Positions 1 through 57,755 of a DNA stretch of 64,000 nt are shown piece by piece. A program made the translations under genes and the position numbers. Where the stretch lies: positions 9,922 through 73,921 of the forward strand of contig JAHITK010000003.1 in NCBI GenBank assembly GCA_018817645.1, read 5' to 3'. Source of the stretch: Patescibacteria group bacterium (lineage in GTDB: Bacteria; Patescibacteriota; Minisyncoccia; Minisyncoccales; PEYH01). Within the stretch, counting starts at the first letter, position 1; every line of letters starts with the position of its first letter. The notes beneath the pieces were generated by a model. The model was not told the DNA's origin. It did no database searches and worked only from the letters and a program-made list of their open reading frames with translations.

Positions 1-74
1 TCCGGAAGCCCACACACGAGGAATTACTCGTCATTGTTATTATAGCGAGAGATGTAATAAAAAGTCAATAGTTT

Positions 75-83
75 TTATCCACA
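75..83 (+). promoter_or_regulatory. Perfect DnaA-box-like 9-mer TTATCCACA within a conserved AGTCAA..TTTTTATCCACA.AAAATT-ATG leader upstream of comM fragment 1
   Basis: Read directly. A near-identical 26-nt leader recurs at 3361-3387 upstream of ksgA. Confidence 0.4.
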
Positions 84-90
84 GAAAATT

Positions 91-255
91 ATGTCTTGTA
101 AAATATTCTCCGGAGCTGTTATTGGATTAGACACTCAAATCATTGAAGTTGAATCGGATATTTCCTATGGATTGAGGAGTTTTGAGATTGTAGGCCTGCC
201 CGATAAGGCGGTAGAAGAGTCGACTGTCCTCACAAAACATTCAAAGTGTTTCTGA
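91..255 (+). pseudogene. Truncated duplicate of the comM/yifB 5' end (54 codons then stop), copy 1
   Basis: Encodes MSCKIFSGAVIGLDTQIIEVESDISYGLRSFEIVGLPDKAVEES, near-identical to the N-terminus of the full gene at 646. Confidence 0.6.
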
Positions 256-414
256 AAACAAAATTTCTTCCGACAGAAGAGGTGGTTGGGCATAGTGTGA
301 AAAATGGTGTCAACTCTATTTTCCCCTCTCCGAACAACCCCAAAAACCCATCACTGGGTTTTTGGTTTGAAGAGAATAGGACACAATGGAAAATATTAAG
401 TTCTAAAAAGTATT

Positions 415-627
415 ATGAGTTCTAAAATCTTCTCCGGCGCTGTCATCGGGCTGGATACCCAAATCACTGAAGTTAAGTCGGATATTTCTTACGGGTTGAG
501 GAGTTTTGATAAAAATAAAAATGGGGTCAACTCTATTTCCCTCTCTCTAGACGATAACCAAAAACCCACTACTGGGTTTTTGTGTTTGAGAAAAATAGGA
601 TACAATAACAAAAATAATATACAATGA
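415..627 (+). pseudogene. Truncated duplicate of the comM/yifB 5' end, copy 2, fused into spacer sequence
   Basis: MSSKIFSGAVIGLDTQITEVKSDISYGLRSF matches the comM N-terminus. The rest is a frame read-through of the repeat spacer that contains a conserved hairpin. Confidence 0.55.
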
Positions 628-645
628 TTACAATTAAAAAGTATT

Positions 646-2193
646 ATGAGTTGTAAAATATTCTCCGGCGCGGTGGTCGGCTTGGAAACTCAAATCATTG
701 AGGTGGAATCAGATATTTCCTACGGATTGAGGAGTTTTGAGATTGTCGGCCTGCCCGATAAGGCGGTAGAAGAATCAAAAGAAAGAGTAAGGTCAGCCAT
801 AAAATCCTGCGGGCTTCATCCTCCTTTTTCAAAACCGGAAAGAATTTTGATTAATTTGGCCCCCGCTGATTTAAAAAAAGAGGGCTCGCTTTATGACCTG
901 CCCATTGCCATTGCCTATCTCGTAAAAAGCAAACAAATCAACGCGGATTGCGAAGGGAAAATGTTTGCCGGAGAATTGTCGTTAGACGGAACCCTGCGCC
1001 CGGTCAAAGGAGCGCTTTCTTTTGCGCTTGAAGCCAATAAAGCAGGATTTTCCGAAATAATCCTGCCAATTGAAAATGTTAAAGAAGCGGCTCTGTGTCA
1101 AATTAATGCCAATAAAAACAATTTAAGAATAATCGGAATTGATTCCTTGCAAACCGCAATAAATTATCTGGAAGGGAAAATAAACATTGAGCCGGCAATG
1201 CTGGATATGAAAGAGGTTATTAAAAACAATGACTACCGGATTGGGTTGGACTGGGTGAGGGGACAAGAGCATGCCAAAAGGGCGCTGGTGATTGCCGCGG
1301 CCGGAGCCCACAACCTCCTGTTTATCGGGCCGCCGGGCGGAGGAAAAAGCTTACTGGCAAAGTCCCTGCCCTCAATCCTACCTGACTTGTCAGTGGAAGA
1401 AATGCTTGAGCTCACCAAAATCTACAGCATTTCCGGAATGCTCTCCAAGGAAGAACCGATTGTGACAAAGAGACCTTTCCGCGCCGCCCACCATACTGCT
1501 TCCAAGGTTTCAATAATCGGCGGAGGCACTCCGGTCCGTCCGGGTGAAATTACTCTTGCCCACCGGGGAATCTTGTTTTTAGACGAATTCCCGGAATTTA
1601 ACAAAGACGTATTGGAGGCCCTGCGGCAGCCCCTGGAAGACGGAACTATAACCGTAATGCGGGCAACCCAAAGAATCACCTTTCCCTGCCATTTCAGTTT
1701 GATTGCCGCGGCCAACCCCTGCCCTTGCGGGCATTTGAACGACCCGAACCATCCCTGTTCCTGCGTTCCCTCACAAATAGCAAAATACAAGCGCAAACTT
1801 TCCGGACCAATAATTGACAGGATTGATATGGTGGTGGAATTGCCTCAAGTGCAGTTTGAAAAACTAATCGCTCCCAACAGCAGTCAGGAAACAATTAAGG
1901 CAAGAAGGGAGATAGAAAAAGCGAGAAAAATTCAGAATGAGCGATTTCAAGAGAATAAAGCAATGACTAATAGCGAAATGGAGATACCGGAAATAAAAAA
2001 ATACTGCCAAATAAATTCAGCGACAAATAATATTCTGAGGGGCTATGTTAACTCTGGCAAGCTCTCAGCCCGCGGTTATCATCGGGTATTAAAAATAGCC
2101 CGCACTATTGCGGACTTAGCAGGGACAGAAGAGATTACGCTTGAAAATCTGCATGAGGCATTGATGTACCGCCTCGCTGAATCCTCTTGTTAA
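646..2193 (+). CDS. comM: YifB/ComM family Mg-chelatase-like AAA+ ATPase
   Basis: Walker A GPPGGGKS, Walker B ILFLDEF, Cys-rich CPCG...CSC region, overall ChlI/ComM architecture. Confidence 0.85.
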   Translation: MSCKIFSGAVVGLETQIIEVESDISYGLRSFEIVGLPDKAVEESKERVRSAIKSCGLHPPFSKPERILINLAPADLKKEGSLYDLPIAIAYLVKSKQINADCEGKMFAGELSLDGTLRPVKGALSFALEANKAGFSEIILPIENVKEAALCQINANKNNLRIIGIDSLQTAINYLEGKINIEPAMLDMKEVIKNNDYRIGLDWVRGQEHAKRALVIAAAGAHNLLFIGPPGGGKSLLAKSLPSILPDLSVEEMLELTKIYSISGMLSKEEPIVTKRPFRAAHHTASKVSIIGGGTPVRPGEITLAHRGILFLDEFPEFNKDVLEALRQPLEDGTITVMRATQRITFPCHFSLIAAANPCPCGHLNDPNHPCSCVPSQIAKYKRKLSGPIIDRIDMVVELPQVQFEKLIAPNSSQETIKARREIEKARKIQNERFQENKAMTNSEMEIPEIKKYCQINSATNNILRGYVNSGKLSARGYHRVLKIARTIADLAGTEEITLENLHEALMYRLAESSC

Positions 2194-3188
2194 TACCAAC
2201 TATTTAACGCCAATTTCGCAAACGGATTTACTGCGCCTCGCACTTCAAAATGAAGGTGGCATCCGCCCGGACCAGCAGGGATGGTGTGTCCTGAATAGCC
2301 AATATATCCGATTATCTGGCCTTGAGAAACTTTCTGCCCGGCAGAAACGGCAATCTTTGACATATGGCCGTAGAAAGTAACCACTCCGTTAGGGTGCAGG
2401 ATTCTTACATAGTTGCCTGCCTGTTTATCCCACCCGGTCCTTTGTATTTCCCCTTGGGCAGCGGCAAAAATAGGGGAACCGCATTCGCCGGTTGAAAAAT
2501 CAATGGCATTATACGAGTGAAGTCCTCGGGTGATTCTCCAAGGCGAAGGCACCGGGACGATAAAGTATGAATTAGGGATGGCTGTTGTTGGAGCCGAATA
2601 TGTTTTTATCAATGCTGGCTTAACGCCTCCGGGGATAATCAGAATATCTCCCACAACAACGGTCCCGTTTTCCGGCAAATTATTAAAAGCAATGATGCCG
2701 TCCTGCGATGCTTTGTAATCCCTTGCTATCTCGCTTATGGTGTCCCCGTTTTGCACAATATACATAGCGCCTGTCACAGGCAGGATAATCAATGTTTTGC
2801 CGACAATGAGAGTTGATTTTGCGGTTAAATTATTTGCCCAAAGGATAGTTTCTGCGCTAATATCAAATTGTTGGGCAACACTACTGATAGTATCGCCTTT
2901 CTGAATAACATACTCCTCCACTCCGGTTTCATTATGGCTTGTCCCACTGCCGGCCCCTAATGATGCTAAGGCCTTATAATCCAGGACTGTCGAGGCGGAA
3001 ACCGCCAATAAACTGTTATCTTGAATGGAGAACAAATCGGGATAGTGTTTTTTCTCCTCCCCTTGGCAAAGAGTGGAACAGGAAGATTGCGAGGAATTCT
3101 CTTCGCTTAAAATATTCGAAATGGCTGGTGTAATAACCGAAGAATCCTTACTGCTTGCATTGACGATAAGGATTGCTACGAGGAACAA
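2190..3188 (-). CDS. Secreted LysM-LysM-M23 family metallopeptidase (TTG start)
   Basis: Two LysM motifs (YVIQKGDTISSVAQQF..., YIVQNGDTISEIARDY...). M23 motifs HSYNAIDF and SGHTIPAGPGGCHLHFEV. Hydrophobic N-terminus. Confidence 0.8.
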   Translation of the reverse strand: MFLVAILIVNASSKDSSVITPAISNILSEENSSQSSCSTLCQGEEKKHYPDLFSIQDNSLLAVSASTVLDYKALASLGAGSGTSHNETGVEEYVIQKGDTISSVAQQFDISAETILWANNLTAKSTLIVGKTLIILPVTGAMYIVQNGDTISEIARDYKASQDGIIAFNNLPENGTVVVGDILIIPGGVKPALIKTYSAPTTAIPNSYFIVPVPSPWRITRGLHSYNAIDFSTGECGSPIFAAAQGEIQRTGWDKQAGNYVRILHPNGVVTFYGHMSKIAVSAGQKVSQGQIIGYIGYSGHTIPAGPGGCHLHFEVRGAVNPFAKLALNSWY

Positions 3189-3372
3189 GAATAAGAAAAA
3201 ACAGGGCTTAATGCATTTCTTAAGCCAAAGGGGTAAATTTAAGTTTTTTCCAATCGTAGGAATAGCTTTGGGCGGGCAGAAGAATCCTTAATTCCGCTGT
3301 CGCCTGTTATCTAAACTATCAAATCCGCCTGATTACCATTGTAATCCCAAAAAGCCAACTTAGTCAAGTTTT

Positions 3373-3381
3373 TTATCCACA
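3373..3381 (+). promoter_or_regulatory. Second copy of the TTATCCACA leader motif, 4 nt upstream of the ksgA ATG
   Basis: AGTCAAGTTTTTTATCCACAAAAATG versus AGTCAATAGTTTTTATCCACAGAAAATTATG at 66-93. Confidence 0.4.
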
Positions 3382-3384
3382 AAA

Positions 3385-4239
3385 ATGGATTTGTGCTCAA
3401 AACAAACAATCAAATCTCTTTTGAAAAACAGCAATATTTCTCCGTCCAAAAAATTGGGCCAGAATTTCTTGATTGACGGGGGGATAATCGACAAAATAAT
3501 CGGGTTTGCTGATTTGAATAATCAGGATACGGTTTTAGAAATAGGGCCTGGGCTCGGTTGCCTAACCCAGGCATTGGCGCAAAAAGCAAAACAAGTGGTC
3601 GCTATTGAAAAAGACCCTAAGCTGTTAGAAGTGTTGAAAAATAACTTAAGGGAGCTCGACAATGTAAAAATTATTTTTGGGGATATTCTTGGGATTGAAA
3701 TCCAAAATCCAAATGTCAAATGTCAAATCAAATCCAAAATCCCAATATCAAATAAATACAAGGTAGTGGCGAATTTGCCTTACAATATCGCCCTGCCGGT
3801 AATCAGAAGGTTTATAGAAGCGACAACTCCTCCGCAATTAATGATTTTGATGATTCAGAAAGAAGTGGCGCAGAAAATATGCGGAGAAAAATCATGTCTC
3901 CCGAAAATCGCGGTTGAAATGTTCGCCAAACCGGAGATATTGTTCTTTGTCCCCAAAAAATCATTTTTCCCGGAGCCAAAGGTTGACGGCGCAGTCATAA
4001 AAATATCTGAAATCCGAGATAAGAATCCTAAAATGGACAAAGAACTATTTTTTAAAATCGTGAAAGCCGGATTTGCTCATCCCAGAAAAACAATTTTAAA
4101 TAATTTGTCAAAAGAGTTGAATATACCCAAAAACGACACGGCTCAATGGCTAGAAAAGGCGAATATCCCCGGCCCCAAAAGACCTGAAGACCTTAATTTG
4201 CAGGAGTGGATAAAACTTGTTGATGGTTTTGATTTTTAA
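3385..4239 (+). CDS. rsmA: 16S rRNA (adenine1518/1519-N6)-dimethyltransferase
   Basis: LGQNFLID motif, SAM-binding EIGPGLGCLT, NLPYNIA motif. Confidence 0.85.
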   Translation: MDLCSKQTIKSLLKNSNISPSKKLGQNFLIDGGIIDKIIGFADLNNQDTVLEIGPGLGCLTQALAQKAKQVVAIEKDPKLLEVLKNNLRELDNVKIIFGDILGIEIQNPNVKCQIKSKIPISNKYKVVANLPYNIALPVIRRFIEATTPPQLMILMIQKEVAQKICGEKSCLPKIAVEMFAKPEILFFVPKKSFFPEPKVDGAVIKISEIRDKNPKMDKELFFKIVKAGFAHPRKTILNNLSKELNIPKNDTAQWLEKANIPGPKRPEDLNLQEWIKLVDGFDF

Positions 4240-4274
4240 TTTGTGTTAAAATTACCAAATAACCGAGACCTAAA

Positions 4275-6686
4275 ATGAAATTAAAAAACTTCCTTATCAC
4301 ATCAAAGCAGAAAATTTTCCTTTGGCTGGTTTTTGCCATTACTATGATTTTTGCGCCTACGCATCCTGTTAGGGCGCAATTCGGCATAGAAATCTTGACC
4401 GCGCCCTTTGTTTTTCTGGCAAAACTGGGAATGGCCCTTCTTATCGCCCTGCCTCTCTCTTTCTTCTGCCTTGAAATAGCCCAGATATTTCTAACCTGGG
4501 CCGCTAACCCAAATTTAGTGGGAGGAGTTGCCAGTAATACCTTCGTCCAGGCGGGCTGGACAGTGGTCAGGGATTTTGCCAATCTCTTTTTCATTTTAAT
4601 CGTGGTGGCCATTGGAATAGCCACCGCTTTGAGAGTCAAGCAATACGAAGTAAGAAAGACCCTGCCCCGCTTGATTATTGTCGCCATATTGATAAATTTC
4701 TCGCCCGTAATCTGCGGAGCAGTGATAGACGCAGCCAATATCATTACTAACTTCTTTTTTACCGCCGGCGCCGGGGGATTCGACAACGTCATCACTTTTT
4801 CAAAGGGCTCTTGGGGTTGGTTAAAAGAGAATTTTGGCACCATTAGCGGTGTTTGGGCGGAAATTAGGACAGGCAGAATTTTCTTCAAAATGATAGCCGT
4901 GACTGTATTCAACCTTTTCGGAGCATTTGTCTTATTCTTAATGGGAATACTTTTCATTGTAAGAAATCTCGCTCTGTGGATTTTGGTGATCTTGTCACCT
5001 TTGGCGTTCTTAGGAGCCATATTGCCAAAAGGCGCAGTGATTCCGGGGGTCCCAAAGAAAAAAAATATTTTTGGCATGTGGCGCGACCAATTCGTAAAAT
5101 GGGTTTTTATCGGAGTCACCGGTTCCTTCTTCCTTTATTTGAGCCAGCTGATGATGCAACTACAAGTAAAATCCCTTTTTAACAATCAAGGGCCTACCAC
5201 AGAAGCATCGGAAGTCGGAGGAAATATAATGACCGGCTTAATGATAATGGCCGTACCTTTGATTTTCCTTGGCATAGGGTATTTTGTCACTGTTTCCAGC
5301 TCCGCGCAGGGCGCCGGCGCTATCACAGGATTAGCTAAAAAGGGGTTCGCCTATGGGAAAAAGACAGCCCAAGGTGCGGCGATAAACAGACTAAGAAAAG
5401 ACATAGGGCAACCGATAAAAAATAGTTATGGAAGCGCTAAAAGAACTGTCCAAAAAGCGGCTGGAAGAATAATATCAGCCCGGCCAACCGATGCCGAACG
5501 AAAGGCGAGTTGGGATCAATCCTCTGGCTTAGGAAGGGCTGGCAAGATTGTGGCCAGAGCCGTGATTCCTTATAAAACCAGAGAAAGATGGAAAGCTCAA
5601 GCAACGGCAAAAATAAAAGAAGGGGACGTAGGTAAGGTGGAAAAAGCAAAGGCAGAAGCAAATAAATTAAATACTGCGGAAGCGCGCAAGGCGGGATATT
5701 TAGAAGCCAAGAAACAACGCGACAAGGAAAAACAACTCGGCTATATTCAGTCAGCCATAGAAAAAGGAGAATTAGACGGTTATTCAAATCAAGAAATTCA
5801 GCGCGCTATACGAGATGCCGGACAAATCAATAAAAAATTGGCAGAGGAAATAATGCAATCCGCACCCAATTTGGCCAAACAGGTTTATGACGAATATCAT
5901 CAAGCGCATCCGAATATAATGAATGAATATAACAATCTAAACACACAGCGAAATGATTTAGACGCTCAACGGATAGCTGCCCAGAATGCGGGCAACAATG
6001 GTTTAGCAAATCAGTTACAAGGACAAATGGACGCATTACAAAGGCAGATGGATAGAGCCAAGCGACCAGCAGACGAGAGAGGTCTATGGATATCGCCTGA
6101 AGACACGCAGCGTTACGGCGGATTGGAGGAAAAAATTGTACTTACTACTAAAACAAAGGATGTCGGTAAATTTAGAAAAAATTACGTAAAGACAAACAGA
6201 TTTATGGAAATTATTCAGGATGAAGCTCATCAAGGGAAAAATGCTTGGTCTGGAAACAACTTATCAAAAATAGCGGAAGAATATGGAACGCCCGTAGCTG
6301 ACCTGTATAATGCCACATCTGACAGAATAAATCGAGCCGGAAACTGGATGCATAATATCGCTGGAAAACGTCACCACATAAAAAGATATATTACAAACAA
6401 CCCCGGAGCTATTGCGGCAGGATATAGACTTCCCGAAGGTGTTTCTGAAGATGATGATGGAGACGATGAAGGAAAGAAAATAATAATCCCGTCTTCAACC
6501 AATGCAAGGACAACTAGCAAGGAAAATATGGATGAAAAACAAAGAGCAGAAATGGAAGAAGAGTCTAGAAGGAAAAGTGAGGAAAGTTCCAGAAGGCGGG
6601 AACCTAATCCTGATGAAAGGGGCGACCGCGGTGAAGAGGAAAGAGAGGGAAGGGGCGGACGCGAGCCCAGAGATGACGAAAGGTAA
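4275..6686 (+). CDS. VirB6/TrbL-like polytopic membrane protein with a long charged coiled-coil C-terminal tail
   Basis: Signal-like N-terminus, at least 6 hydrophobic helices in the first 400 aa, then a roughly 400-aa K/E/R-rich tail ending RRKSEESSRRREPNPDERGDRGEEE. Located next to the VirB4-like genes. Confidence 0.45.
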   Translation: MKLKNFLITSKQKIFLWLVFAITMIFAPTHPVRAQFGIEILTAPFVFLAKLGMALLIALPLSFFCLEIAQIFLTWAANPNLVGGVASNTFVQAGWTVVRDFANLFFILIVVAIGIATALRVKQYEVRKTLPRLIIVAILINFSPVICGAVIDAANIITNFFFTAGAGGFDNVITFSKGSWGWLKENFGTISGVWAEIRTGRIFFKMIAVTVFNLFGAFVLFLMGILFIVRNLALWILVILSPLAFLGAILPKGAVIPGVPKKKNIFGMWRDQFVKWVFIGVTGSFFLYLSQLMMQLQVKSLFNNQGPTTEASEVGGNIMTGLMIMAVPLIFLGIGYFVTVSSSAQGAGAITGLAKKGFAYGKKTAQGAAINRLRKDIGQPIKNSYGSAKRTVQKAAGRIISARPTDAERKASWDQSSGLGRAGKIVARAVIPYKTRERWKAQATAKIKEGDVGKVEKAKAEANKLNTAEARKAGYLEAKKQRDKEKQLGYIQSAIEKGELDGYSNQEIQRAIRDAGQINKKLAEEIMQSAPNLAKQVYDEYHQAHPNIMNEYNNLNTQRNDLDAQRIAAQNAGNNGLANQLQGQMDALQRQMDRAKRPADERGLWISPEDTQRYGGLEEKIVLTTKTKDVGKFRKNYVKTNRFMEIIQDEAHQGKNAWSGNNLSKIAEEYGTPVADLYNATSDRINRAGNWMHNIAGKRHHIKRYITNNPGAIAAGYRLPEGVSEDDDGDDEGKKIIIPSSTNARTTSKENMDEKQRAEMEEESRRKSEESSRRREPNPDERGDRGEEEREGRGGREPRDDER

Positions 6687-6697
6687 ATAAAAATTTA

Positions 6698-6730
6698 AAA
6701 CAGGGCTGTCCCTCCGGACAGCCCTGTTTG
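6698..6730. terminator. Bidirectional stem-loop terminator between convergent genes
   Basis: AAACAGGGCTGTCC-CTCC-GGACAGCCCTGTTT, a perfect 14-bp stem. Confidence 0.7.
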
Positions 6731-6741
6731 GCTTCCACCTC

Positions 6742-8013
6742 CTATGCCGACTCTTCTTCTGATTTTGGGGTCGGCTTTTTCTTGTCTGCCGGCTCATTGG
6801 TTGCAGCAGATTGTAGCCATTTCAGCAGGAGCGCCGGGACTGCCCCAAGGGATCCCTTCTCTCCGCCTCCCTGATTCAGGGCAACTGCCCATGCTCCTCC
6901 ATGCTTAGCAAGAGTATCTGTCAGCTCAAAGGCCAAGGCCGTCCTTAGTGCCTCGGACTCCTCTCCCATCCCCGCTCCTTGGAGTTTTTCCTTCATATCC
7001 AGCACGGGTCCAATTCGCTCCGCGCTCTCTTGAAGGGCCTTATACAGGGCTGCTTCTGTCTTAAGCTTCTCTACCCGCACGCGCTCGCGGGCTTCCTCAA
7101 TCTCCTTGGAGAGCTTAACAGCTCCGCAAAAGGCCCCTGTAATCTGTAGTATGCCTCTTTGGTGGGCATCTATGGTAATGAGGTTGTCCAAGCTCGCAGC
7201 GATACCCCTATAGAGCTTTGGAAGAGGGATTAGGCGGGTGATTTCTTCATCAAGATCCTCTATCGCCGGGTTAGACATATCCGGCACCGCGTCAATAGCT
7301 GTCATCGTCGCAAGGAGCGTTTTTTTCAGCGCCCTCACTCTCTTCAGTTTTTCCTTGGCAACGCCCTCGGCTTCGCGGATTCGGTCCAAGATGTTATCAC
7401 GGATCATTCCCTCGTCAGTCGCTTCTGCGACTGTAAGGGTTTGTATATACCCCACGATAAGCGAATTGGCCTTATTCCGAATCCAGTCCGGCCAATCTTG
7501 GACGCCGTACACCGCTGCCACGATATCGCCAAACCCAACACCCATTTTCAAGACGAGGGTGTAATCTCGAAGATAGATGACCCCATCATGTATTTGGATC
7601 TTGGGCAGTTCCCCTGGCGGTAGGGGGATGAGGTCAAGCACCCTTTCGTGCGGCCTCATCAACTTTCCCTTCGTATCTATGAAGGGTATCGTCAGGTGAA
7701 TGCCCGGACAGAGAGCGTCTTTCCTCCTTCCGAACCTCAAGCGGAGCCATGTTTCCGGCTCTGGAACAATCCATACGCCCCAGCAAACTAAGCCCCCGAG
7801 CGCAAGGATCTCCCCAAGAAACGACCAGCCCTTGGGAATCGCGAAGAGGCCCAAAACGAATATCAAGAGTCCAGCCCAAAAACCGACATTGGCAAAAATC
7901 CTGAAAATTCGTCTCTGCACCTCTACCCCTCTTTCTTGTCCTTGGCGCCCTACTCCTTGCCCTGCTCTCGCGGCAACCTGTCCAGTTGCAACCTCTGTTG
8001 GCATTTTGCCCAT
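6742..8013 (-). CDS. SPFH/band-7 (stomatin/HflC-like) membrane protein, anomalously GC-rich
   Basis: TM segment then VPEPETWLRLRFGRR...LTIPFID...IQIHDGVIYLRDYTLV fits the SPFH fold, followed by a coiled-coil tail. Local GC is visibly far above the surrounding genome. Confidence 0.6.
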   Translation of the reverse strand: MGKMPTEVATGQVAARAGQGVGRQGQERGVEVQRRIFRIFANVGFWAGLLIFVLGLFAIPKGWSFLGEILALGGLVCWGVWIVPEPETWLRLRFGRRKDALCPGIHLTIPFIDTKGKLMRPHERVLDLIPLPPGELPKIQIHDGVIYLRDYTLVLKMGVGFGDIVAAVYGVQDWPDWIRNKANSLIVGYIQTLTVAEATDEGMIRDNILDRIREAEGVAKEKLKRVRALKKTLLATMTAIDAVPDMSNPAIEDLDEEITRLIPLPKLYRGIAASLDNLITIDAHQRGILQITGAFCGAVKLSKEIEEARERVRVEKLKTEAALYKALQESAERIGPVLDMKEKLQGAGMGEESEALRTALAFELTDTLAKHGGAWAVALNQGGGEKGSLGAVPALLLKWLQSAATNEPADKKKPTPKSEEESA

Positions 8014-8811: not shown

Positions 8812-9228
8812 ATGGAGTATCCTCTGCCACAATTTTTATCAATAAAACCAAAGGTTGCCGGACCCCTTAATTTAATGCAACTGTTGTATATCGTGGGCGG
8901 GGCAATCGTGGCCGTTATTTTCTACTTCACCGCTTCCCTCACCACCTTTATCATAATGGGCATCCCGATTATGGTGGTTGCTTTGATTTTGGCTTTTGGC
9001 AAAAGAAAAGGATTCCCGATTCCCACCATCATCGGCCGTTCTTTTATGTTTATCTTTGCCAGTAAAAGATATCTCTGGAAAAAAGTGGACACGCCGGCAA
9101 TCGTGCTTCCAAAAGCGACCAAGGCAAAGGCCGCAGAATTAGAAGACGATAAAGCGGTGAGCTTAAAAATTTCCGGCCAGAGCAGATTGAAAGAAATTGG
9201 GCGGCTGATTGAAATTCATCCCAAGTAA
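8812..9228 (+). CDS. Small two-TM membrane protein (VirB3-like position); the ORF track starts at TTG 8791
   Basis: Two long hydrophobic helices. Immediately precedes the VirB4-like genes. Confidence 0.4.
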   Translation: MEYPLPQFLSIKPKVAGPLNLMQLLYIVGGAIVAVIFYFTASLTTFIIMGIPIMVVALILAFGKRKGFPIPTIIGRSFMFIFASKRYLWKKVDTPAIVLPKATKAKAAELEDDKAVSLKISGQSRLKEIGRLIEIHPK

Positions 9229-9242
9229 ACTAATTTTGTATT

Positions 9243-9881
9243 ATGAATCTTTCATCCCAACAATTCCTGCCATTAGAACAAATAAAAGAGGGCATTATGA
9301 TATTGAAGGACCATAGTTTGAGGGGCATAATGATGGCCTCCTCCCTTAATTTCGCCCTCAAAGCCACTGACGAGCAGGAAGCGATTATTTATCAATTCCA
9401 GACATTTTTAAATGCTTTAGATTTTTCCTGCCAAATCTTTATCGCTTCAAGAAAAGTGAATATTACCGGCTATCTGGAAAAACTAAAAGAAGTGGAGAAA
9501 AAACACGAGAATGAATTGATGGCTGCCCAGACCAGGGAATACCGGAAGTTTATTGAAAAAATAGTGGCTGGCGGTTCCATCATGAATAAAAATTTCTACA
9601 TAATCGTGCCTTTTTACCTCTCGGAAATGTACGGAGGCGCTACCAAAGGAGGAATACTCACTCTAAAAGCAGCGCCGACCTTAACCGAAGAAATGTTCCA
9701 AAGGGCAAAATCTCAACTTTATCAAAGAATGGAATTTCTGTCTTTGGGCTTGAGAAGGTGCGGGGTTTGGAGCGTTGCCTTACAGAGCGAAGAATTAATA
9801 GAGCTTTTATGGAGTATGTCCCACCCCAAAGAATCCTCTGTCGGCTATTACCCGGAGATTCCGCCTGAATTAATACAATAA
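9243..9881 (+). CDS. VirB4/TraC-family N-terminal domain encoded as a separate ORF
   Basis: ILKDHSLRGIMMASSLNFALKATDEQEAI... resembles the N-terminal segment of conjugative VirB4 ATPases. The stop is 8 nt before the next ORF. Confidence 0.4.
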   Translation: MNLSSQQFLPLEQIKEGIMILKDHSLRGIMMASSLNFALKATDEQEAIIYQFQTFLNALDFSCQIFIASRKVNITGYLEKLKEVEKKHENELMAAQTREYRKFIEKIVAGGSIMNKNFYIIVPFYLSEMYGGATKGGILTLKAAPTLTEEMFQRAKSQLYQRMEFLSLGLRRCGVWSVALQSEELIELLWSMSHPKESSVGYYPEIPPELIQ

Positions 9882-9889
9882 CGAATAAA

Positions 9890-12800
9890 ATGAAACTGCC
9901 TTCTTTAAGTGAATTATTGGGAAGAAAGACGGCCTATGAAGCCGGCGCGGAACCGCAAGCAATGAATTTGCTTGATTTTATCGCTCCGCCGGCCATTACC
10001 ATCGGGTCTGATTATTTCCAAATCGGGGAAAAATTCGCCAAATCATATTTTATCTTTTCCTATCCAAGATATTTGAGCACCGGGTGGCTGGCGCCGATTA
10101 TAAACCTGGATATTCCTTTGGATATCTCCATTTTCTTTCATCCGATTGACACTGGGCTTGTTTTGAAAAAATTAAGCAAAAAGGTTACCGAGGTTCAGTC
10201 CGAGATTATGGAAAAAGAGGAAAAGGGACTGATTCGAGACCCGGTGCTGGAAACCGCGTACAAAGATATTGAGATATTAAGAGACCGGCTCCAAACAGCG
10301 CAGGAAAGAATGTTTAGGATAGGGCTTTACCTGACCATATACGCTGACGATAAAAAGGAATTGGAAAAAATAGAGGGCACGATTCGCTCGATTCTGGAAT
10401 CAAAATTGGTCTATATAAAACCAGCTCTCTACCAGCAGGACCGGGCGATGGTTTCCGCCTATCCCGCAGGCATAGACCGGCTTCAGGTGCATACCTCCAT
10501 CAATACCAGCCCGCTTTCCACAATTTTCCCTTTCGTGTCTTTTGATTTGAGTTCCAATGAAGGAATCCTTTACGGAATCAATCAGCATAACAGTTCGCTG
10601 GTCTTGTTTGACCGATTCAGCTTGGAGAACGCTAACTCGGTCGTGTTCGGAAAAAGCGGCGGCGGCAAAAGCGTTTTATCATTTGAGCCGGTGCTGATAA
10701 GCGAAAACGGCCAAACCAAAGTTGAAAATATCGGCAAAGTGGTGGAAAGAGCGATAGAAAAATACGGGTGTCAAAAAATTGACGAGGAGCTGGAAGGAGC
10801 GCTAAATCCATCCATTAAGGTTTGGAGTTTTGATAAAAATCTTAAAGGCAGTTGGTCAACAGTGACAGTCGCGGCCAGGAAAAAAGCCCCTGAAACATTT
10901 TATAAATTCAGAACCCGGAGCGGGAGAGAAGTGAGCACAACCGGAGACCATAATATGCTAATCATCAGAAACGGACAAATCGTGGCTGAGAAAAGCGCTG
11001 AAATCAAGGCAGGGGAATTCATCCCGTTGTCCAGAAAAATTTCCGAAAACTCCTCTCCGGATAAATTCATAAACCTGCTTGAATTGTTGAAAAACTCCCG
11101 CTTGATTTATATTTCCAAGGCGGAAAAAATCATTAAAAAATATTATCATCAGATAAAAAATCTTGAAGGGAATTCCTCGTTAGGGAAATATCTCTATAAA
11201 TACAAGGCTGGCCGGAGAATTCCTATTAAATATTTCTTGGAAATCATCAATTCTTTAAAAATTCCGGAAGCCGAGTTTAATGATTTGAAGATTGTTTCCA
11301 AAAACGGAGACCTCGGCAATGGTTTGAAGATAAACCTACCTATTTCAGCCGACTTATTGAAAATAATCGGTTTTATAACATCAGAAGGGACAGTGGGCGA
11401 ACACTTTATAAATATCAGCAACCAGGACGAGGGATTCATCAAGGAGTGTATGGATTCTTTCAGAAATATTGGAATCCCCTGTTATCGGACAGATAAAGCG
11501 GTTATTTGCGCCAGCCGCGTTTTCACGGAAATCATCAAATCATTGGGCGGAAAACAAAAATCCGGAAACAAAAAGGTATTGCCATTCATATTCAATGCGG
11601 AAAAAGAAAAAATCGCGCCATTTCTTTCCGCTTATTTTGAAGGAGACGGGGAGGTGGAACATAATAAAATATGTGTCACGACCAAATCAAAACAATTATC
11701 ATCTGAAATCTCTTATCTGCTTTATTATTTTGGAATCATTGCCCGGATTCAAAAGAAAATCAAATACGCAGCCAATACGAAAAAGAAACTTAAACAAACA
11801 TACTGGCAGATTTCTATATCAGGCAAAAGCGATTTGGAAAAATTTGCCCAAGAAATCGGGTTCATTTCCGGCAGAAAAACAAATAAACTGAACAGTATCA
11901 TAAAAGAAAACGGAAATACCAATGTTGATATAATTCCGGGTCTGACCTCGTTATTTGGAGAAATGTACAATGCCTGCCCTCCGCTTCTTATGGGGATGCC
12001 GGAAATTTCCGCCCTGAAGTGCGGGGTTTATAATCCTTCGCCGGATAATTTAAAAAGAATAATAGAAAAAATAGAAAAAAGGGTTGTTTATTTTAAAGAG
12101 CGGGGAGAACAAATAAAAATCCTGTCGGAATTGCCTAGAATTCAGGAATTAATTGAGCGCGGAGAAAGCGATAAATCGCTAAACAAGGAATTATGGAATT
12201 ATCTTGGCCCCAGCTGGCAACTTGTAAAAACCAACCAAGTTGACCCGGGCTTTGAAAATGTATCAAAAATCATCAATGTAATTTATGGCAATGATTATAA
12301 TCTGTCGGAAATCAAAAAAGAGATTCATCAGGGATTCAAAGAAATGGATATCTCTATTAAGGACTATAATCGCACCGTCCAGTCGGCATTAATAGACAGA
12401 CCGGATTCGAATACCAGATACCGCACCATTCAACAAGCCGGTCAGCTCATTTGGCAGAGATACCAGACAGTTTTAAGAAATGGCCTTCCAAAAATTGAGA
12501 ACACGCTTACGCGCCTAAAAACTCTGGCCAATTCTGATTTATTCTTTGATGAAATTGTCAGCATTGAAAAAATTGCCAACCAGAACGAGCAATATGTTTA
12601 TGACTTAACGGTGGACAATGAAGTGTTTCTCTGCGGGAACGGCGGAATGTTCGTGCATAATTCTTACGCTGTCAAGTTGGAGGTTTTACGGTCGTTAATG
12701 CTTGGAATTGAATCAATTATCATTGACCCGGAAAACGAGTATAAATTCCTCTCCGACGCAGTGGGCGGCAAGTTTTACAATATCTCTTTGGCCTCGGAAA

Positions 12801-18651: not shown

Positions 18652-19380
18652 TTATTTTTTCGTTAAATAATATTTCTTTCTGATAAAAAACTGCTGGGCC
18701 GCCATAAATATCCCGGCCACCAGTAAATAAAGGCCTAAGGCCGCGGGCAGGCGCAAAAGGACAACGGTAATCAAAATAGGGAACAGAAATATCATCTGTT
18801 TTTGAAACATATCCGCGAAGCCCGATTTTTTAGGGGACTGATTCTGGTTTTTTTCCTTTTTCGGCATCGCGAATTTGCTTTGAAGGAAAAAAGTTATGCC
18901 AACGATTACAGCCAAAAAAGGCGATGGCTCGTTCAGATTAATGCCGAGAAACATCGGATTAATCACTTCCGGCCGCTGAACAAAACTGTAAAGATAAACA
19001 AAATTCTCCTCCTGTATGCCCTGCCAGAACATCCGGTAAAGAATAAACAGGATTGGCAGCTGGATAAGGGTCACCAGAAACGCTGAAAAAGGATTAATTT
19101 TTTCGGTTTTATAAAGCTCCATCATTGCTTTTGCCTGCTCCTCCCGGTTATTCTTGTATTTTGCCTGGATCTCTTTCAGTTTGGGCTGCAAGGCCTGCAT
19201 AGCCAGCTGGGACCGGCTCGCCCGGTCTTGCAGAGGATAAAGAATAACCCTGATGAGTAGGGTCAGAACGATAATCGCCACTCCAAGATTATGGCCCGGC
19301 AGATAATAACAGAGCAAAATCAACAGATTAAACAGGGGTTGCCACAATATTACATGAAAAAAATTAGTGAAAGCATTCAT
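18652..19380 (-). CDS. yidC: Membrane protein insertase YidC (short form)
   Basis: LYPLQ...KLKEIQAKYKNNREEQAKAMMELYKTEKINPFS motif. 5 TM helices. Confidence 0.85.
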   Translation of the reverse strand: MNAFTNFFHVILWQPLFNLLILLCYYLPGHNLGVAIIVLTLLIRVILYPLQDRASRSQLAMQALQPKLKEIQAKYKNNREEQAKAMMELYKTEKINPFSAFLVTLIQLPILFILYRMFWQGIQEENFVYLYSFVQRPEVINPMFLGINLNEPSPFLAVIVGITFFLQSKFAMPKKEKNQNQSPKKSGFADMFQKQMIFLFPILITVVLLRLPAALGLYLLVAGIFMAAQQFFIRKKYYLTKK

Positions 19381-20257: not shown

Positions 20258-21613
20258 ATGAATAAAGAAGAGCTTTGGCAAGCAATTTTGTCCCAAATCC
20301 AGTTTAATATATCGCAGGCGAATTTCAGCACCTGGTTTAAGAATACTTATATTCTCTCAAAGGATAATGGGATAATAATAATCGCTGTGCCGAATAATTT
20401 TTCAAAAGAATGGCTGGAAAAAAAATATAACAAACTGGTTTTGAATGGTTTGGAGGAATTAAACGAAAGAGTTAAATCAATAGAATATAAGGTGGTGAAT
20501 GTTCCGGCCCCCCAGAGGCCGAAAGTATCTGCCAAGGCCGAAATAACGGCCATAAACCAGTTAGAATTGGAAGAATTGGCGCTTGATAAATACACTAACC
20601 TTAATCCTAAATACACTTTTGACAATTTCGTGGTTGGCCCGTTTAATGAATTGGCGCATGCGGCCGGATGGGCGGTAAGCCAAAAACCGGGTTTAGTATA
20701 TAATCCCTTTTTTGTCTACGGAGGAGTCGGGCTGGGCAAGACCCATCTCCTGCAGGCAATCGGAAACAAAGTGGGCGAGCATTTTTCCAAAAAGAAAATT
20801 AAATATCTTTCTTCTGAAAGATTCATATCCGGCATTATCAATGCGATAAAAAATCAGACTATCGAAGATTTTAAAAACGCTTATCGCGACTTTGATGTGC
20901 TGATAATCGACGATATTCAGTTTCTGGCAGGCAAAGAAAAGACCCAGGAAGAATTTTTCCATCTTTTCAATGTTTTATACGAAACCAACAAACAAATTGT
21001 CATTTCATCCGACCGCCCTCCGAAAGCGATTTCCGCCCTGGAAGAACGATTGCGCTCAAGATTTGAAGGCGGGATGATAACGGACATTGGAACGCCTGAC
21101 TTTGAAAGCAGAATCGCCATCTTGAAACAAAAAATACAAGAGAAAAAAGCAGGAATCAGTGAGGAAGTTTTAGGGTATATTGCTTCAAATATCCAAAAAA
21201 ATGTCAGGGAACTGGAAGGGGCTTTAAAATCCTTGGCTGCCTGGAAACAGCTTCATAATCAGGATATTAATCTCGAGCTGGCGAAAAAGATTTTAAGAAA
21301 AACAGTCAATCCGCAGCCCAAAGGGCTTAATTTCCAAAAAATAGTCACAACGGTGGCAGAATTCTATAGTATGAAGGATAAAGATTTGTTTGTAATCTCA
21401 AGAAAAAAAGAAATCGTAAAACCCCGCCAGATAGCAATGTATTTTTTAAGGGAAGAGTTAAAGAGTTCTTTTCCGTTCATCGGCAAAAAATTCGGAGGCA
21501 AGGACCATACTACCGCCATTTATGCCTGTGAAAAAATTTCAAAGGAAATAATAGAAAACGAACAGCTGGCGGAAGAAATAAATCTTATCAAGGAAAAAAT
21601 TTACGCTTATTAG
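20258..21613 (+). CDS. dnaA: Chromosomal replication initiator DnaA
   Basis: N-terminal ELWQAILSQIQFNISQANFSTWF. AAA+ Walker A GGVGLGKTHLLQAIG. C-terminal DNA-binding KDHTTAIYACEKI. Confidence 0.9.
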   Translation: MNKEELWQAILSQIQFNISQANFSTWFKNTYILSKDNGIIIIAVPNNFSKEWLEKKYNKLVLNGLEELNERVKSIEYKVVNVPAPQRPKVSAKAEITAINQLELEELALDKYTNLNPKYTFDNFVVGPFNELAHAAGWAVSQKPGLVYNPFFVYGGVGLGKTHLLQAIGNKVGEHFSKKKIKYLSSERFISGIINAIKNQTIEDFKNAYRDFDVLIIDDIQFLAGKEKTQEEFFHLFNVLYETNKQIVISSDRPPKAISALEERLRSRFEGGMITDIGTPDFESRIAILKQKIQEKKAGISEEVLGYIASNIQKNVRELEGALKSLAAWKQLHNQDINLELAKKILRKTVNPQPKGLNFQKIVTTVAEFYSMKDKDLFVISRKKEIVKPRQIAMYFLREELKSSFPFIGKKFGGKDHTTAIYACEKISKEIIENEQLAEEINLIKEKIYAY

Positions 21614-21878: not shown

Positions 21879-23012
21879 ATGAAAATAATAATACTTAAAG
21901 AAAAGTTGGCTAAAGGGTTGAGCATTGTCGAAAGAATAACTGGAAAAAATCTCACCCTCCCGATTTTAAATAATGTTTTAATTTCCGCAGAAGATAATTC
22001 ATTGAAACTCTCGACCACTGATCTTGAATTAGGGATTAGTTATTGGGGCCTTGCCAAAGTGGAGGAAAAGGGCGAAATCACTATCCCGGTAAGAACTCTT
22101 TCCGGTTTTGTTTCTTTGGTCGGAGAAGAAAAAGTGACAATAGAAAGCAAAGAAAAAACCCTTTATCTTAAAGGGGAAAATTATAAGACCCAGATAAAGG
22201 GGCTTGATACAAAGGATTTCCCGATTATTCCGGAAGTTGTTTCAGATAAATGGCTTGAGTTTGAGGCCATTGCTTTTTGCAAAGGAATAATGCAGGTAAT
22301 GGATTTTTGCGCCTTGACTCAAGTAAGGCCCGAACTTTCAGGATTATATTTTTCTTTCCAAAAAGATTTGGCTAAAATCGCCGCTACTGACAGCTTCCGC
22401 TTGTCAGAAAAAACCATTGCTTTAGACGGGATAACTCAAGGCCTAGAAGGCCCCCAGTCATTTATCTTGCCCAAAAACGCGGCCCGGGAAATAGTCAATA
22501 TTTTTTCCGAACACAACGGAAAGGTTAAGTTCTCTTTATCTCCCAGCCAAGTGATGATTGAGAGTTATATTGACGATACCAAAAATCCCCAGGCGCGTCT
22601 GGTTTCCCGCTTAATTGAAGGCGAATACCCGGATTACGAGGCCGTCATACCCAAGGAATTCAAAACGCGGGTCATTATTCCCCGGGAGGAGTTTCTAAAT
22701 CAGATTAAAATTGCCAGTTTATTCAGCGGAAGGACCAATGAAGTGAAATTGGCGATAAGCCCTAAAAAAGGAAATGTCTTAATATCTTCGCAAAGCGTTG
22801 ATTTAGGAGAGACGGAATCTAGAATCGCGATAGCAGCTCAGGGCGAGGAGGTGGAAATAAGCTTCAATTATAAATTTCTGGCGGAAGGATTGAATCAAAT
22901 AAAATCAGACAAAATCATTTTTGAGCTTAATGGCCAAGATGGCCCTGGTGTTCTAAAACCGAGCGATGATGCGAGCTATATCTATGTGATAATGCCCATT
23001 AAGGCATCTTAA
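21879..23012 (+). CDS. dnaN: DNA polymerase III beta sliding clamp
   Basis: MKIIILKEKLAKGLSIVERITGKNLTLPILNNVLI. Three-domain length. Follows dnaA. Confidence 0.85.
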   Translation: MKIIILKEKLAKGLSIVERITGKNLTLPILNNVLISAEDNSLKLSTTDLELGISYWGLAKVEEKGEITIPVRTLSGFVSLVGEEKVTIESKEKTLYLKGENYKTQIKGLDTKDFPIIPEVVSDKWLEFEAIAFCKGIMQVMDFCALTQVRPELSGLYFSFQKDLAKIAATDSFRLSEKTIALDGITQGLEGPQSFILPKNAAREIVNIFSEHNGKVKFSLSPSQVMIESYIDDTKNPQARLVSRLIEGEYPDYEAVIPKEFKTRVIIPREEFLNQIKIASLFSGRTNEVKLAISPKKGNVLISSQSVDLGETESRIAIAAQGEEVEISFNYKFLAEGLNQIKSDKIIFELNGQDGPGVLKPSDDASYIYVIMPIKAS

Positions 23013-27532: not shown

Positions 27533-28588
27533 TTATAATAATTTTGTGTTTTGTGTTTTTGATTTTGGATTTATTCTAAGGTGCTCATAGGCCTTTTGAG
27601 TCGCCATCCTTCCTTTGGGGCTTCTTACAATCAAGCCCAGCTGCAGCAGATACGGCTCATAGACCTCCAAAATATTATCCTGCTCCTCATTAGCGGAGGC
27701 CGCTAATGCCTGCAAGCCAACCGGGCCGCCATTAAACTTCCGGATTAGCATTTCCAGAATTTTTCTATCCGGCGGCTCCAGCCCCATTTCATCTATCTCT
27801 AAAGCCGATAATCCCAATTCGGTTATTTCTTTATTAATTTTTTCCATTCCTTCTACTTGCGCGAAATCGCGGATTCTTTTCAGAAGCCGATTGGCTATGC
27901 GCGGAGTGAATCTTGAACATTGACTTATCATGGTTATGGCTTCCTCATCTATTGCTATAGATAAGATGCCGGCCGATCTTTTGATAATTTTTTGGATATC
28001 ATCGCCCGAATAAAAATCAACCTGAAAAGTAGCTCCAAATCGGCTTCTCAACGGAGAGGTAAGCAGCCCGATTCTGGTCGTTGCCCCTATCAAGGTGAAG
28101 GGAGGAAGGTCTATTTCCAGCGTTCTGGCCATCGGGCCGGTGCCGGTTATTATCTGCAGTTTGAAATCCTCCATAGCCGGATAGATAATCTCCTCACAGG
28201 TTTTATTCAAGCGATGAATTTCGTCAATAAAAAGAACATCTCTTTCGGAGAGCGAGGTCAAAATAGCAGCCAGATCTCCCGGTCTTTGGATGGCCGGGCC
28301 AGTGATAATTCTTATATTAGAGTCGATGCTTTGGGCGACTAAACGCGACAGGGTTGACTTTCCAAGCCCCGGGCCGCCGCAAAAAAGAAGATGGTCAACC
28401 GCCTCCTTTCTTTCTTTGGCTGCTTGCAGGATAATCCGGATATTTCTTTTTATCCTCTCTTGCCCAATAAAATCCTCCCATTGTTTGGGTCTAAGGGTTT
28501 GGTCTAAGACCTCTTCTTCTTTTAGATTAACATTGTCCCGTAATGGTTTCTTTTTTGGAGAGAGGGGGTAGGGGGGGTTGACAATCAT
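27533..28588 (-). CDS. ruvB: Holliday junction branch-migration helicase RuvB
   Basis: Walker A GGPGLGKSTL. Sensor and arginine-finger regions present. Confidence 0.9.
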   Translation of the reverse strand: MIVNPPYPLSPKKKPLRDNVNLKEEEVLDQTLRPKQWEDFIGQERIKRNIRIILQAAKERKEAVDHLLFCGGPGLGKSTLSRLVAQSIDSNIRIITGPAIQRPGDLAAILTSLSERDVLFIDEIHRLNKTCEEIIYPAMEDFKLQIITGTGPMARTLEIDLPPFTLIGATTRIGLLTSPLRSRFGATFQVDFYSGDDIQKIIKRSAGILSIAIDEEAITMISQCSRFTPRIANRLLKRIRDFAQVEGMEKINKEITELGLSALEIDEMGLEPPDRKILEMLIRKFNGGPVGLQALAASANEEQDNILEVYEPYLLQLGLIVRSPKGRMATQKAYEHLRINPKSKTQNTKLL

Positions 28589-47401: not shown

Positions 47402-47584
47402 GTCCCTGTGGTTCAACGGCCCGCCAAAATTTGCCCTCATAGTTTAACGGACAAAACACAGGCCTCCGGAGCTTGAAATACAGGTTCGATTCCTGTTGAG
47501 GGCATAAGCAAAATTTAGGCGGGTAAAATAAAATGCCTCCCTCCGGAGGAGGAAATGGCTGTTCGAATCAGCCCAGGGACACAT
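47402..47584 (+). ncRNA. tRNA-Arg(CCG)-like gene split into a 5' part (acceptor + D-loop) and a 3' part (anticodon arm + T arm + acceptor) by a 121-nt insert that contains a complete tRNA
   Basis: 5' GTCCCTG-TG-GTTCAACGG and 3' CCTCC-CTCCGGA-GGAGG-AAAT-GGCTG-TTCGAAT-CAGCC-CAGGGAC-A. Ends are perfectly complementary. The insert is closed by a CCCGCC/GGCGGG helix and flanked by AAAATTT direct repeats. Confidence 0.45.
47433..47504 (+). tRNA. tRNA-Arg (anticodon CCG), CCA not encoded
   Basis: Hand-folded cloverleaf. Acceptor GCCCTCA/TGAGGGC, D stem GTTT/AAAC, anticodon stem CAGGC/GCTTG with loop CTCCGGA, T stem ACAGG/CCTGT with loop TTCGATT, discriminator A. Confidence 0.8.
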
Positions 47585-57726: not shown

Positions 57727-57755
57727 ACTTTTATAATTACTGATTTTAATTTTAG

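Follow-up and report, generated by a model that had tools for sequence, protein, structure and literature searches.

Why the 5′ end of comM should occur three times in succession, the last time as the start of an intact gene, is the question raised by one end of a 64 kb stretch of DNA from a Patescibacteria group bacterium (contig JAHITK010000003.1, positions 9,922–73,921), referred to here in its whole length as the window. The feature under study lies in window 1–800, where the three copies stand on the same strand with ATG codons at 91, 415 and 646. Window 1–776 is probably the end nearest to comM of a tandem array, now decayed, of small integrative cassettes that carry no recombinase and that target codons 44–46 of comM (core GAAGAATC) in Parcubacteria. 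The anatomy of the cassettes, a precise common junction, an empty site, cargo-bearing homologues, divergence constrained by coding and secondary sites sharing only the core can all be read directly from the sequences compared.

A preliminary description of the locus had reported three comM 5′ copies in the same orientation, and this is borne out by the three ATG positions, by tblastn with the ComM N-terminus (E=3e-23 for the 44 codons of copy 1 and E=2e-12 for the 32 codons of copy 2) and by a separately assembled Logan contig, L001, which is identical to the window at 3734 of 3734 nucleotides (nt) and runs 8 nt further to the left. The pairwise nucleotide identity among the copies is 81–85% over the first 93 nt, and because the copies differ by 15–20%, repeat expansion by the assembler can be ruled out from the sequences as the source of the triplication. 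Between copies, third codon positions account for 12 of 18, 16 of 21 and 12 of 17 differences (P=0.004, 7e-5 and 0.002 against a uniform distribution), and between copy 1 and comM 646–777, which are 85% identical, the differences number 2, 3 and 16 at the first, second and third codon positions. This bias indicates that each copy evolved as the translated 5′ end of a functional gene, diverging in a working gene and not as junk after a duplication. The region is made up as follows.

1–34 (ATG at 34–32), − strand: start of a leftward open reading frame (ORF), MTSNSSCVGFR...; the 8 extra nt of L001 extend it to ...MVA
39–68, − strand: promoter-like site TTGACT-18-TATAAT, 11 of 12 matches, pointing at the leftward ORF
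75–83, + strand: TTATCCACA, resembling a DnaA box, before copy 1 only
91–222, + strand: comM 5′ copy 1, codons 1–44, truncated; attL-side stub, from identity and tblastn
214–221, + strand: junction core GAAGAGTC; the intact gene has GAAGAATC at 769–776
222–299, + strand: conserved left arm GACTGTCCTCACAAAACATTCAAAGTGTTTCTGAAAAC...CTTCCGACAG..., with 23 distinct instances, conserved over about 55–60 nt
300–321, + strand: B block 1, AAAAATGGTGTCAACTCTATTT, start of a right arm, with no cargo between it and the left arm
340–365, + strand: hairpin 1, predicted copy of the terminator of a dksA-like gene, then TTTG; from folding and comparison
366–414, + strand: leader 1, a native-type comM leader, AATAGGACACAAT
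415–510, + strand: comM 5′ copy 2, codons 1–32; its last 12 codons and the ensuing left arm are deleted
517–538, + strand: B block 2
559–582, + strand: hairpin 2, a variant of hairpin 1
583–645, + strand: leader 2, with promoter-like TACAAT boxes
646–2193, + strand: intact comM, 515 amino acids, with ChlI, Mg_chelatase and Mg_chelatase_C domains

The head-to-tail units have periods of 324 and 231 nt, and both spacers contain the 22-nt B block (300–321 and 517–538), the hairpin and a T-rich tail. Copies 2 and 3 share a leader, AATAGGAYACAAT...TAAAAAGTATT, whereas the leader and upstream sequence of copy 1 are unrelated to it. The left arm supplies an in-frame stop codon at 253–255, giving a 54-amino-acid ORF at 91–255, and the ORF at 415–627 is a fortuitous read-through. 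The TACAAT boxes of leader 2, as a putative promoter, probably drive the intact comM.

The origin of these units becomes apparent from close relatives. In a scan of a genome collection with ComM, the window falls in Parcubacteria, near Nealsonbacteria. The relative L003, with 85% ComM identity, has a single comM 5′ end and represents the empty site: a dksA/TraR-like gene is followed by a spacer of about 25 nt, the hairpin AAAACCCA-GAAA-TGGGTTTT with a T-run, the leader AATAGGATACAAT and the single comM. The hairpin and leader of the window are therefore of the native upstream region of comM. It had been supposed beforehand that a single-copy 5′ end in related genomes would mark the repeats as an assembly artefact; the single copy was indeed found, but it is an unoccupied site and no evidence of an artefact. 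The relative L002 (and L078, which does not differ from it), with 89% ComM identity, shows the 5′ end three times, its stubs ending at codon 44, with segments of 1.15 and 1.87 kb between the copies. The first of these segments carries a Gp49/HigB-type toxin with an HTH_3 partner and the second a membrane protein and an NYN-domain protein.

Window 83–278 aligns with copy 2 of L002 and its left arm, and window 517–2243 is collinear, at 83% identity, with L002 9874–11598, which comprises the right arm of the last cassette and comM. The boundary at window 279/300 corresponds to L002 8191...9873, so that about 1.7 kb of cargo is missing from the window. From this collinearity, the window holds an array of the L002 type that has lost its cargo. 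In cassette 1 (222–414), the left arm, the B block, the hairpin and the leader are all still present, with nothing between the arms, while from cassette 2 (511–645), by the same comparison, not only the cargo but also the left arm is gone, together with the final 12 codons of the stub before it. The survival of both arms in cassette 1 marks the cassettes of the window as remnants of internal deletion and not as products of precise excision. At least one more, cargo-bearing cassette probably lies beyond the left edge of the window, because the leader of copy 1 is not native, a promoter-like site and an ORF point leftwards, and the dksA-like gene and a gene for an 842-amino-acid protein, the syntenic flanks of comM in L002, L003 and L071, are absent from the window; the leftward ORF at 1–34 is probably a cargo gene of that cassette. 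Two assemblies break at the left side of the array, a break for which the array itself accounts.

If the comM upstream region and 5′ end had simply been duplicated in tandem on the spot and had then decayed there, the head-to-tail units and their periods would be accounted for. This is nevertheless a very improbable explanation, given the third-codon bias, the unrelated leader of copy 1 and a left arm that is foreign to the empty site of L003, and given that in relatives the same junction flanks kilobases of varied cargo.

The tandem array of integrative cassettes is seen in a less decayed state in metagenomes, where 23 contigs were found by the left-arm pattern. Nearly all of them have the same architecture, in which comM amino acids 1–44 are followed by the left arm, 1–5.6 kb of DNA and the next comM 5′ end, the right arm with its promoter and fresh codons 1–44 restoring comM. 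As many as three cassettes occur in tandem (L080, L094 and L099), and in the window, L002, L079, L080, L087, L093, L094 and L096 the last right arm leads into a full-length comM. The junction always lies after GAAGA(A/G)TC (core GAAGAATC) in the 23 distinct left-arm instances, with differing cargo. The left arm, GACTGTCCTCACAAAACATTCAARGTRTTYYTRAAAAC...CTTCCGAYAG, is conserved over about 55–60 nt, and over more than 110 nt within subfamilies, although ComM identity to the window falls to 55–60%, and because it supplies a stop codon 10 codons after codon 44, 54-amino-acid ORFs recur at the stubs. In a subfamily with more than 110 nt of conserved left arm, a conserved stem-loop, CTGTCCATA-N12-TATGGACAG, was observed about 95 nt past the junction (L088:161–205 and equivalent positions in L081 and L097), with no Rfam match. 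The cargo is mainly of the toxin–antitoxin or nuclease type and includes Gp49/HigB with HTH_3, RelE-like, PIN, HicA, SocA_Panacea and NYN proteins as well as membrane proteins. The preliminary suggestion that the copies are scars of repeated integration, or of att duplication at a comM hotspot, thus agrees with the empty L003, with the cargo-bearing arrays of L002 and the 23 metagenome loci and with the third-codon bias.

The right arm of lineages near that of the window contains the 22-nt B block, the hairpin and a native-type leader. The B block, AAAAATGGTGYCAAYTCTRTTT, was seen only in these lineages; it lies in the forward direction just before the right-arm hairpin, and an inverted copy lies 45–60 nt inside the left arm. 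It may serve to bind a protein or may be a terminal inverted repeat. Its positions are as follows.

Window 300–321 and 517–538: B block
L002 6924–6945 (inverted) and 9874–9895: B block
L071 7232, 7769 and 7939 (inverted): B block
L090, comM-oriented, 12271 and 12319 (inverted): B block

We therefore describe a cassette as a conserved left arm of about 60 nt, a variable cargo and a right arm in which a promoter or leader is combined with a mimic of comM codons 1–44, the right arm of the window lineage also carrying a copy of the terminator hairpin of the upstream gene. On this reading, insertion leaves the former 5′ end as a 44-codon stub that ends 10 codons into the left arm, while the mimic is joined to the remainder of comM, so that the gene is kept intact and regains a promoter; codons 1–44 of the intact comM of the window would then be derived from an element. 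Repeated insertion beside the intact gene stacks stubs upstream, and in the two cassettes of the window internal deletions have later removed the cargo. The array of L080 has one extra cassette at the comM-proximal position, a pattern to be expected if newcomers enter at the regenerated site beside the intact gene. The NYN cassettes of L002 and L080 are 89.6% identical over 2.16 kb, whereas the adjacent comM genes are 78.5% identical.

The hairpins invite a different reading of the stubs. A conserved hairpin had been described in the spacers, and it is present as CCAAAAACCCA-TCAC-TGGGTTTTTGG at 340–365 and as a variant at 559–582, both with T-rich tails. The two fold at −20.6 and −17.9 kcal/mol, respectively (z −3.6 and −3.8); across all of the hairpins the energies range from −13 to −21 kcal/mol and z from −2.5 to −6.1, and with the tail UUUUUGGUUUG they have the properties of intrinsic terminators. 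A simple terminator scan missed them, as by its rule the stem has too few G–C pairs (<3). Short ORFs followed by stable hairpins with U-rich tails are also what a leader-peptide attenuator regulating comM would look like, as the preliminary description had offered as an alternative. The hairpin begins about 25 nt past the stop codon of the dksA-like gene in L003 and L002, and because it directly follows this stop codon in the empty site and also before copy 1 of L002, it is predicted to be the native terminator of that gene, and each right arm carries a copy of it. Stubs without the hairpin occur in the L079/L087 lineage; folding predicts a single dominant hairpin with no alternative antiterminator pairing, and in Rfam no family matched the hairpin, the spacer or the left arm, apart from one chance small RNA match in L084. 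The attenuator is accordingly given very little credence, and the hairpin copies in the right arms, as predicted terminators, would instead insulate the restored gene from upstream transcription. A crossover in the palindromic hairpin (model B) was considered separately and rejected, since the stubs of L079/L087 have no hairpin.

The L079/L087 lineage also bears on the shape of the duplicated segment. Here the first stub directly follows the dksA-like coding sequence, and the restored gene has a leader borne by the element, with a good promoter, TTGTCA or TAGACA, N16–17, TAAAAT. The right edge of the duplication is thus constant, at codons 44–46, whereas its left edge varies with the lineage, and this is the arrangement expected, in terms of sequence organization, of an attP-side mimic of the target 5′ end. 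Horizontal transfer of the 5′ segment between L079 and L087 was also considered, on the grounds that the 5′ copies are 87–95% identical while the upstream host DNA is 87% and the comM body 76% identical; this signal, limited by the generally higher conservation of the ComM N-terminus, was judged weak and was not used.

If the cassettes are mobile, the next question is by what means they move. Homologous recombination alone could be proposed, in which the codon-44 junction arose once and cassettes have since been gained, lost and swapped by RecA-type exchange after DNA uptake, either by Campbell-type events or by double crossovers. The 5′ copies within a locus are 89–99% identical over 132–230 nt, arms of 60 to more than 110 nt together with the 5′ copy could act as flanking homology, and no cassette encodes a recombinase. 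In four contexts, no codon-44 stub precedes the left arm, which nevertheless lies immediately after ...GAATC: within comM of L088/L089, at TTTTGAAGAATC (where the native sequence of that lineage is TTTGAAGAATCATTA); in L094, at TTTTGACGAATC; and, right after the dksA-like stop codon, in L082/L083 and in L085. Such secondary sites share only a short core, of about 8 nt in L088/L089 and at TTTTGACGAATC of L094, and argue for site-specific over homologous recombination; moreover, the noncoding left arm is conserved across lineages in which comM is only 55–60% identical, and the entry of new cargo between the arms would be unaccounted for. Homologous recombination as the sole process is therefore unlikely. 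In the reading that we prefer, the cassettes would be moved site-specifically by an enzyme acting in trans, a recombinase whose gene lies elsewhere, as in cis-mobilizable elements (CIMEs), and homologous recombination between the 89–99% identical repeats may contribute to the loss and shuffling of cassettes. An 8-nt common core is more typical of tyrosine than of serine recombinases.

The same group of bacteria hosts large serine recombinase (LSR) elements in comM, and the cassettes might be satellites of these, moved by the LSR of the L088/L089 type or by its partner small resolvase. The L088/L089 element (L088:1–12061) is 12 kb in length and encodes type III restriction–modification-like genes (a ResIII helicase and an N6_N4 methylase), a ClpP-like protease, a Panacea-domain protein, a resolvase and a 540-amino-acid LSR with Resolvase, Recombinase and Zn_ribbon_recom domains. 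At its left end, an ordinary left arm of more than 110 nt, like that of L081 and L097, is joined at an internal GAAGAATC at comM codon ∼251, and at its right end, beside the resolvase and LSR, it is joined at codon ∼284, with comM codons ∼253–284 missing. From these junctions, it is probably a composite of two events, and the link that it suggests between LSR and cassettes is a weak one. The loci of the LSR family in comM are as follows.

L088, L089, L101–L104 and L107: the seven loci with the LSR junction at comM codon ∼284
L101, comM-oriented, 9141–11620: codon-284 LSR
L104 1043–3879: codon-284 LSR
L107 3796–12444: codon-284 LSR

The LSRs at codon 284, which as a rule are accompanied by a small resolvase, are carried by elements, either prophage-like or small, that interrupt comM. 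The attB of this family lies around CTTCNGAAGTAG, the recombinase ORF continues through the junction and the elements occur in both orientations relative to comM; L107 preserves both junctions, with inverted-repeat element ends, clean N- and C-terminal halves of comM and no target duplication. No left arm is present in the LSR loci L101–L104 and L107, the junction at codon 284 in all seven loci shares no sequence with the codon-44 site, and an LSR gene and an inverted-repeat attP were found only in the codon-284 elements, neither the window nor the codon-44 cassettes having them. Serine recombinases need a 2-bp crossover, so that an 8-nt common core is not what they require. An LSR end combined with the left arm was tried as a serine-type attP and rejected, its inverted-repeat score being at the level of chance. 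The satellite explanation is thus somewhat less probable still than homologous recombination alone. A search of IMG/VR for a relative of the LSR gave only one match, with 24% identity.

Several observations weigh against an array of site-specifically integrated cassettes and should be set beside it. No recombinase is encoded in any of the roughly 30 cassettes, which leaves the catalysis wholly inferred, nor was one found in the 64 kb window by tblastn with LSR and small resolvase queries, by motif regular expressions or by Pfam, for which the scan took 20 ORFs of 240–456 amino acids and left out ORFs below 120 amino acids; ORFs 30146–31234 (− strand) and 32823–33773 had no Pfam match. The sole recombinase-bearing elements with the same left arm are L088/L089, whose LSR family has its own attB at comM codon ∼284, and a hypothetical attP built from the L088 ends and the left arm has 9 of 22 inverted-repeat matches, a value reached by 78% of shuffles. 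Copies as alike as those within a locus would also permit homologous recombination or gene conversion, an excised circle or a population polymorphism was not directly observed, and the left side of the array is out of view, both the window and L001 ending there. An attempt to extend the window leftwards by exact-protein look-up of ComM and the 54-amino-acid stub returned only the 3.7 kb contig L001. IMG/VR contained no matches to the specific left-arm and B-block patterns, and the 12 matches to a short pattern were all due to chance, with identity of about 25% beyond the pattern itself and comM absent from the surroundings.

A host enzyme could take the place of an element-encoded one, as in Xer/dif-type integration through the recombinase that resolves chromosome dimers. 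Integrative mobile elements exploiting Xer (IMEX), such as CTX-phi, lack an integrase and form tandem arrays, and the comM cassettes resemble them in both respects. The site at comM lies inside a coding sequence and, within the window, on the origin side and not at the terminus: YidC (18652–19377, − strand), dnaA (20258–21610) and dnaN (21879–23009) are present, GC skew is flat to about 30 kb and strongly positive thereafter, with its cumulative minimum at about 28–30 kb, and the replication origin region seems to lie inside the window, 18–28 kb from comM. The core also shows no dif-like 11-6-11 architecture, the cassette junction scoring 10 of 22 inverted-repeat matches, and Xer-mediated integration has accordingly only a slight probability. 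No transfer RNA (tRNA) or transfer–messenger RNA (tmRNA) gene that could act as the target lies near the integration site.

The array of non-autonomous cassettes can be compared with several known systems. In ICESt1 and its CIMEs of Streptococcus thermophilus, tandem accretion of cis-mobilizable elements has been described (Pavlovic et al. 2004, cited in PMC3146451), and as far as that citing account goes, the likeness extends to the stacking of elements at one att site with repeated target-gene ends between them, to members that keep att sites without integration genes and to newer elements adjoining the intact target. The comM cassettes are likewise flanked by att sites and carry no integration or transfer genes. 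Relative to the same account, they differ in that all of the roughly 30 cassettes lack a recombinase, in their size of 0.2–5.6 kb and in their Parcubacteria hosts, as well as in their target, a protein gene occupied at its 5′ end (codon 44), with a mimic of 132–230 nt that includes the promoter. The ssrA islands of Dehalococcoides lie in tandem downstream of a single-copy conserved gene and are bounded by direct repeats of the gene end; some lack integration modules and have been read as CIME-like, and a conserved motif flanking the repeat sets the insertion point (PMC3146451). The comM cassettes share the tandem arrangement, the direct gene-end repeats, the members without integration modules and the motif at the junction, whereas the Dehalococcoides islands have a CcrB-type serine recombinase module and a 20-bp repeat of an RNA-gene 3′ end, in place of which the comM cassettes have no cognate recombinase that was found and a 44-codon repeat of 5′ coding sequence. 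Tycheposons of Prochlorococcus leave partial tRNAs between stacked elements (bioRxiv 10.1101/2020.12.28.424599); serial integration at one site, the pushing inward of older elements and the partial targets and degenerate remnants left behind are common to both, but tycheposons encode tyrosine recombinases and target tRNA genes, whereas the comM cassettes encode none and target comM. From these analogies, the comM array is classed as tandem accretion of non-autonomous integrative elements, which is of a known kind.

Small cassettes of one or two genes without recombinases, a fixed platform, common toxin–antitoxin cargo and proximal entry also recall integrons. It is conceivable, though on balance doubtful, that codon 44 of comM serves Parcubacteria as an integron-like platform for gene capture, on which toxin–antitoxin and defence cassettes with a promoter and a 44-codon mimic are captured and shuffled by a dedicated trans-acting recombinase whose gene would lie elsewhere in these tiny genomes, with the left arm and B blocks as its putative binding sites. 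Unlike in integrons, no IntI-type integrase adjoins the array, the cassette ends lack imperfect palindromes of the attC type, the cargo lies in both orientations with its own promoters and each cassette carries a mimic of a gene 5′ end. When IntI, attI and Pc were looked for around comM, the genes upstream were found to be those for the dksA-like protein, the 842-amino-acid protein, PNPase, an NYN protein and S15 and those downstream an M23 peptidase and ksgA, with no integrase among them; in place of attC, the boundaries consist of the left arm and the comM mimic, with an inverted-repeat score of 10 of 22.

The comM/yifB family is an island hotspot elsewhere. Islands of the AbaR/Tn6022 type in Acinetobacter baumannii, Tn7-like transposons, disrupt comM and duplicate a short stretch of the target; in the Parcubacteria cassettes, unlike in these islands, comM is restored by the carried 5′ mimic, and the ends are unrelated. 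The LSR prophage A118 of Listeria splits comK. In the same manner, the LSR elements of the relatives split comM at codon ∼284 (L107), although they form a separate system, at another position of comM and not in the window, in which the gene is not restored. The LSR enzyme itself is covered in PMC3556126. A small literature search found no paper on cassettes at comM codon 44 or on the LSR site at codon 284 in Patescibacteria.

In two relatives, comM itself has been affected. In L071 (6486–8565), a cassette remnant is fused to comM codon ∼316, the first ∼315 codons being lost, and in L097 (comM-oriented, 2432–7691) a stub and one cassette are followed by the M23 peptidase-like gene and ksgA, with no comM left. 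Because of these losses and the LSR-split alleles, the sequences suggest that comM is dispensable in these lineages.

The motif TTATCCACA had been given a part in the repeats, each copy of the comM 5′ end being said to have its own leader of this sequence. This did not hold, as the motif occurs at 75–83, before copy 1 only. A second exact occurrence in the window lies at 3373–3381, before ksgA (start at 3385), both being a few nucleotides upstream of a start codon (that of comM copy 1 at 91 and that of ksgA). Two exact copies against 0.34 expected were reached in 6 of 100 shuffles, which is not significant, and its candidacy as a shared leader or as a DnaA box was dropped on both counts; the occurrences are most likely due to chance.

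Elsewhere in the window, RuvB (27533–28585, − strand) and a type II/IV secretion ATPase, T2SSE (28726–30030, − strand), accompany comM; together they could be part of a gene set for DNA uptake and recombination, with a bearing on the spread of cassettes by transformation. A tRNA-Arg(CCG) gene lies at 47432–47505 (+ strand) and a tmRNA gene, with the tag peptide ANLFQRPAYAYA, at 57753–58131 (− strand); the scans made here detected no repeats of the ends of either gene.

In conclusion, the feature at the start of the window is a decayed scar, and its wider value lies in the hotspot and the family of non-autonomous cassettes that it exposes in Parcubacteria. The mobile elements of bacteria of the candidate phyla radiation are poorly charted. 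This locus and some 25 related loci delineate a recurrent hotspot in comM, at which tiny cassettes without recombinases accumulate while the gene is not destroyed, and a second, unrelated class of LSR elements splits comM about 240 codons downstream. In genome annotation, the 54- and 70-amino-acid ‘genes’ upstream of comM would be recognized as integration stubs. The core GAAGAATC together with the arm of about 60 nt may serve as a handle for finding flexible genes in Parcubacteria metagenomes, as well as for hunting the recombinase that would move the cassettes.

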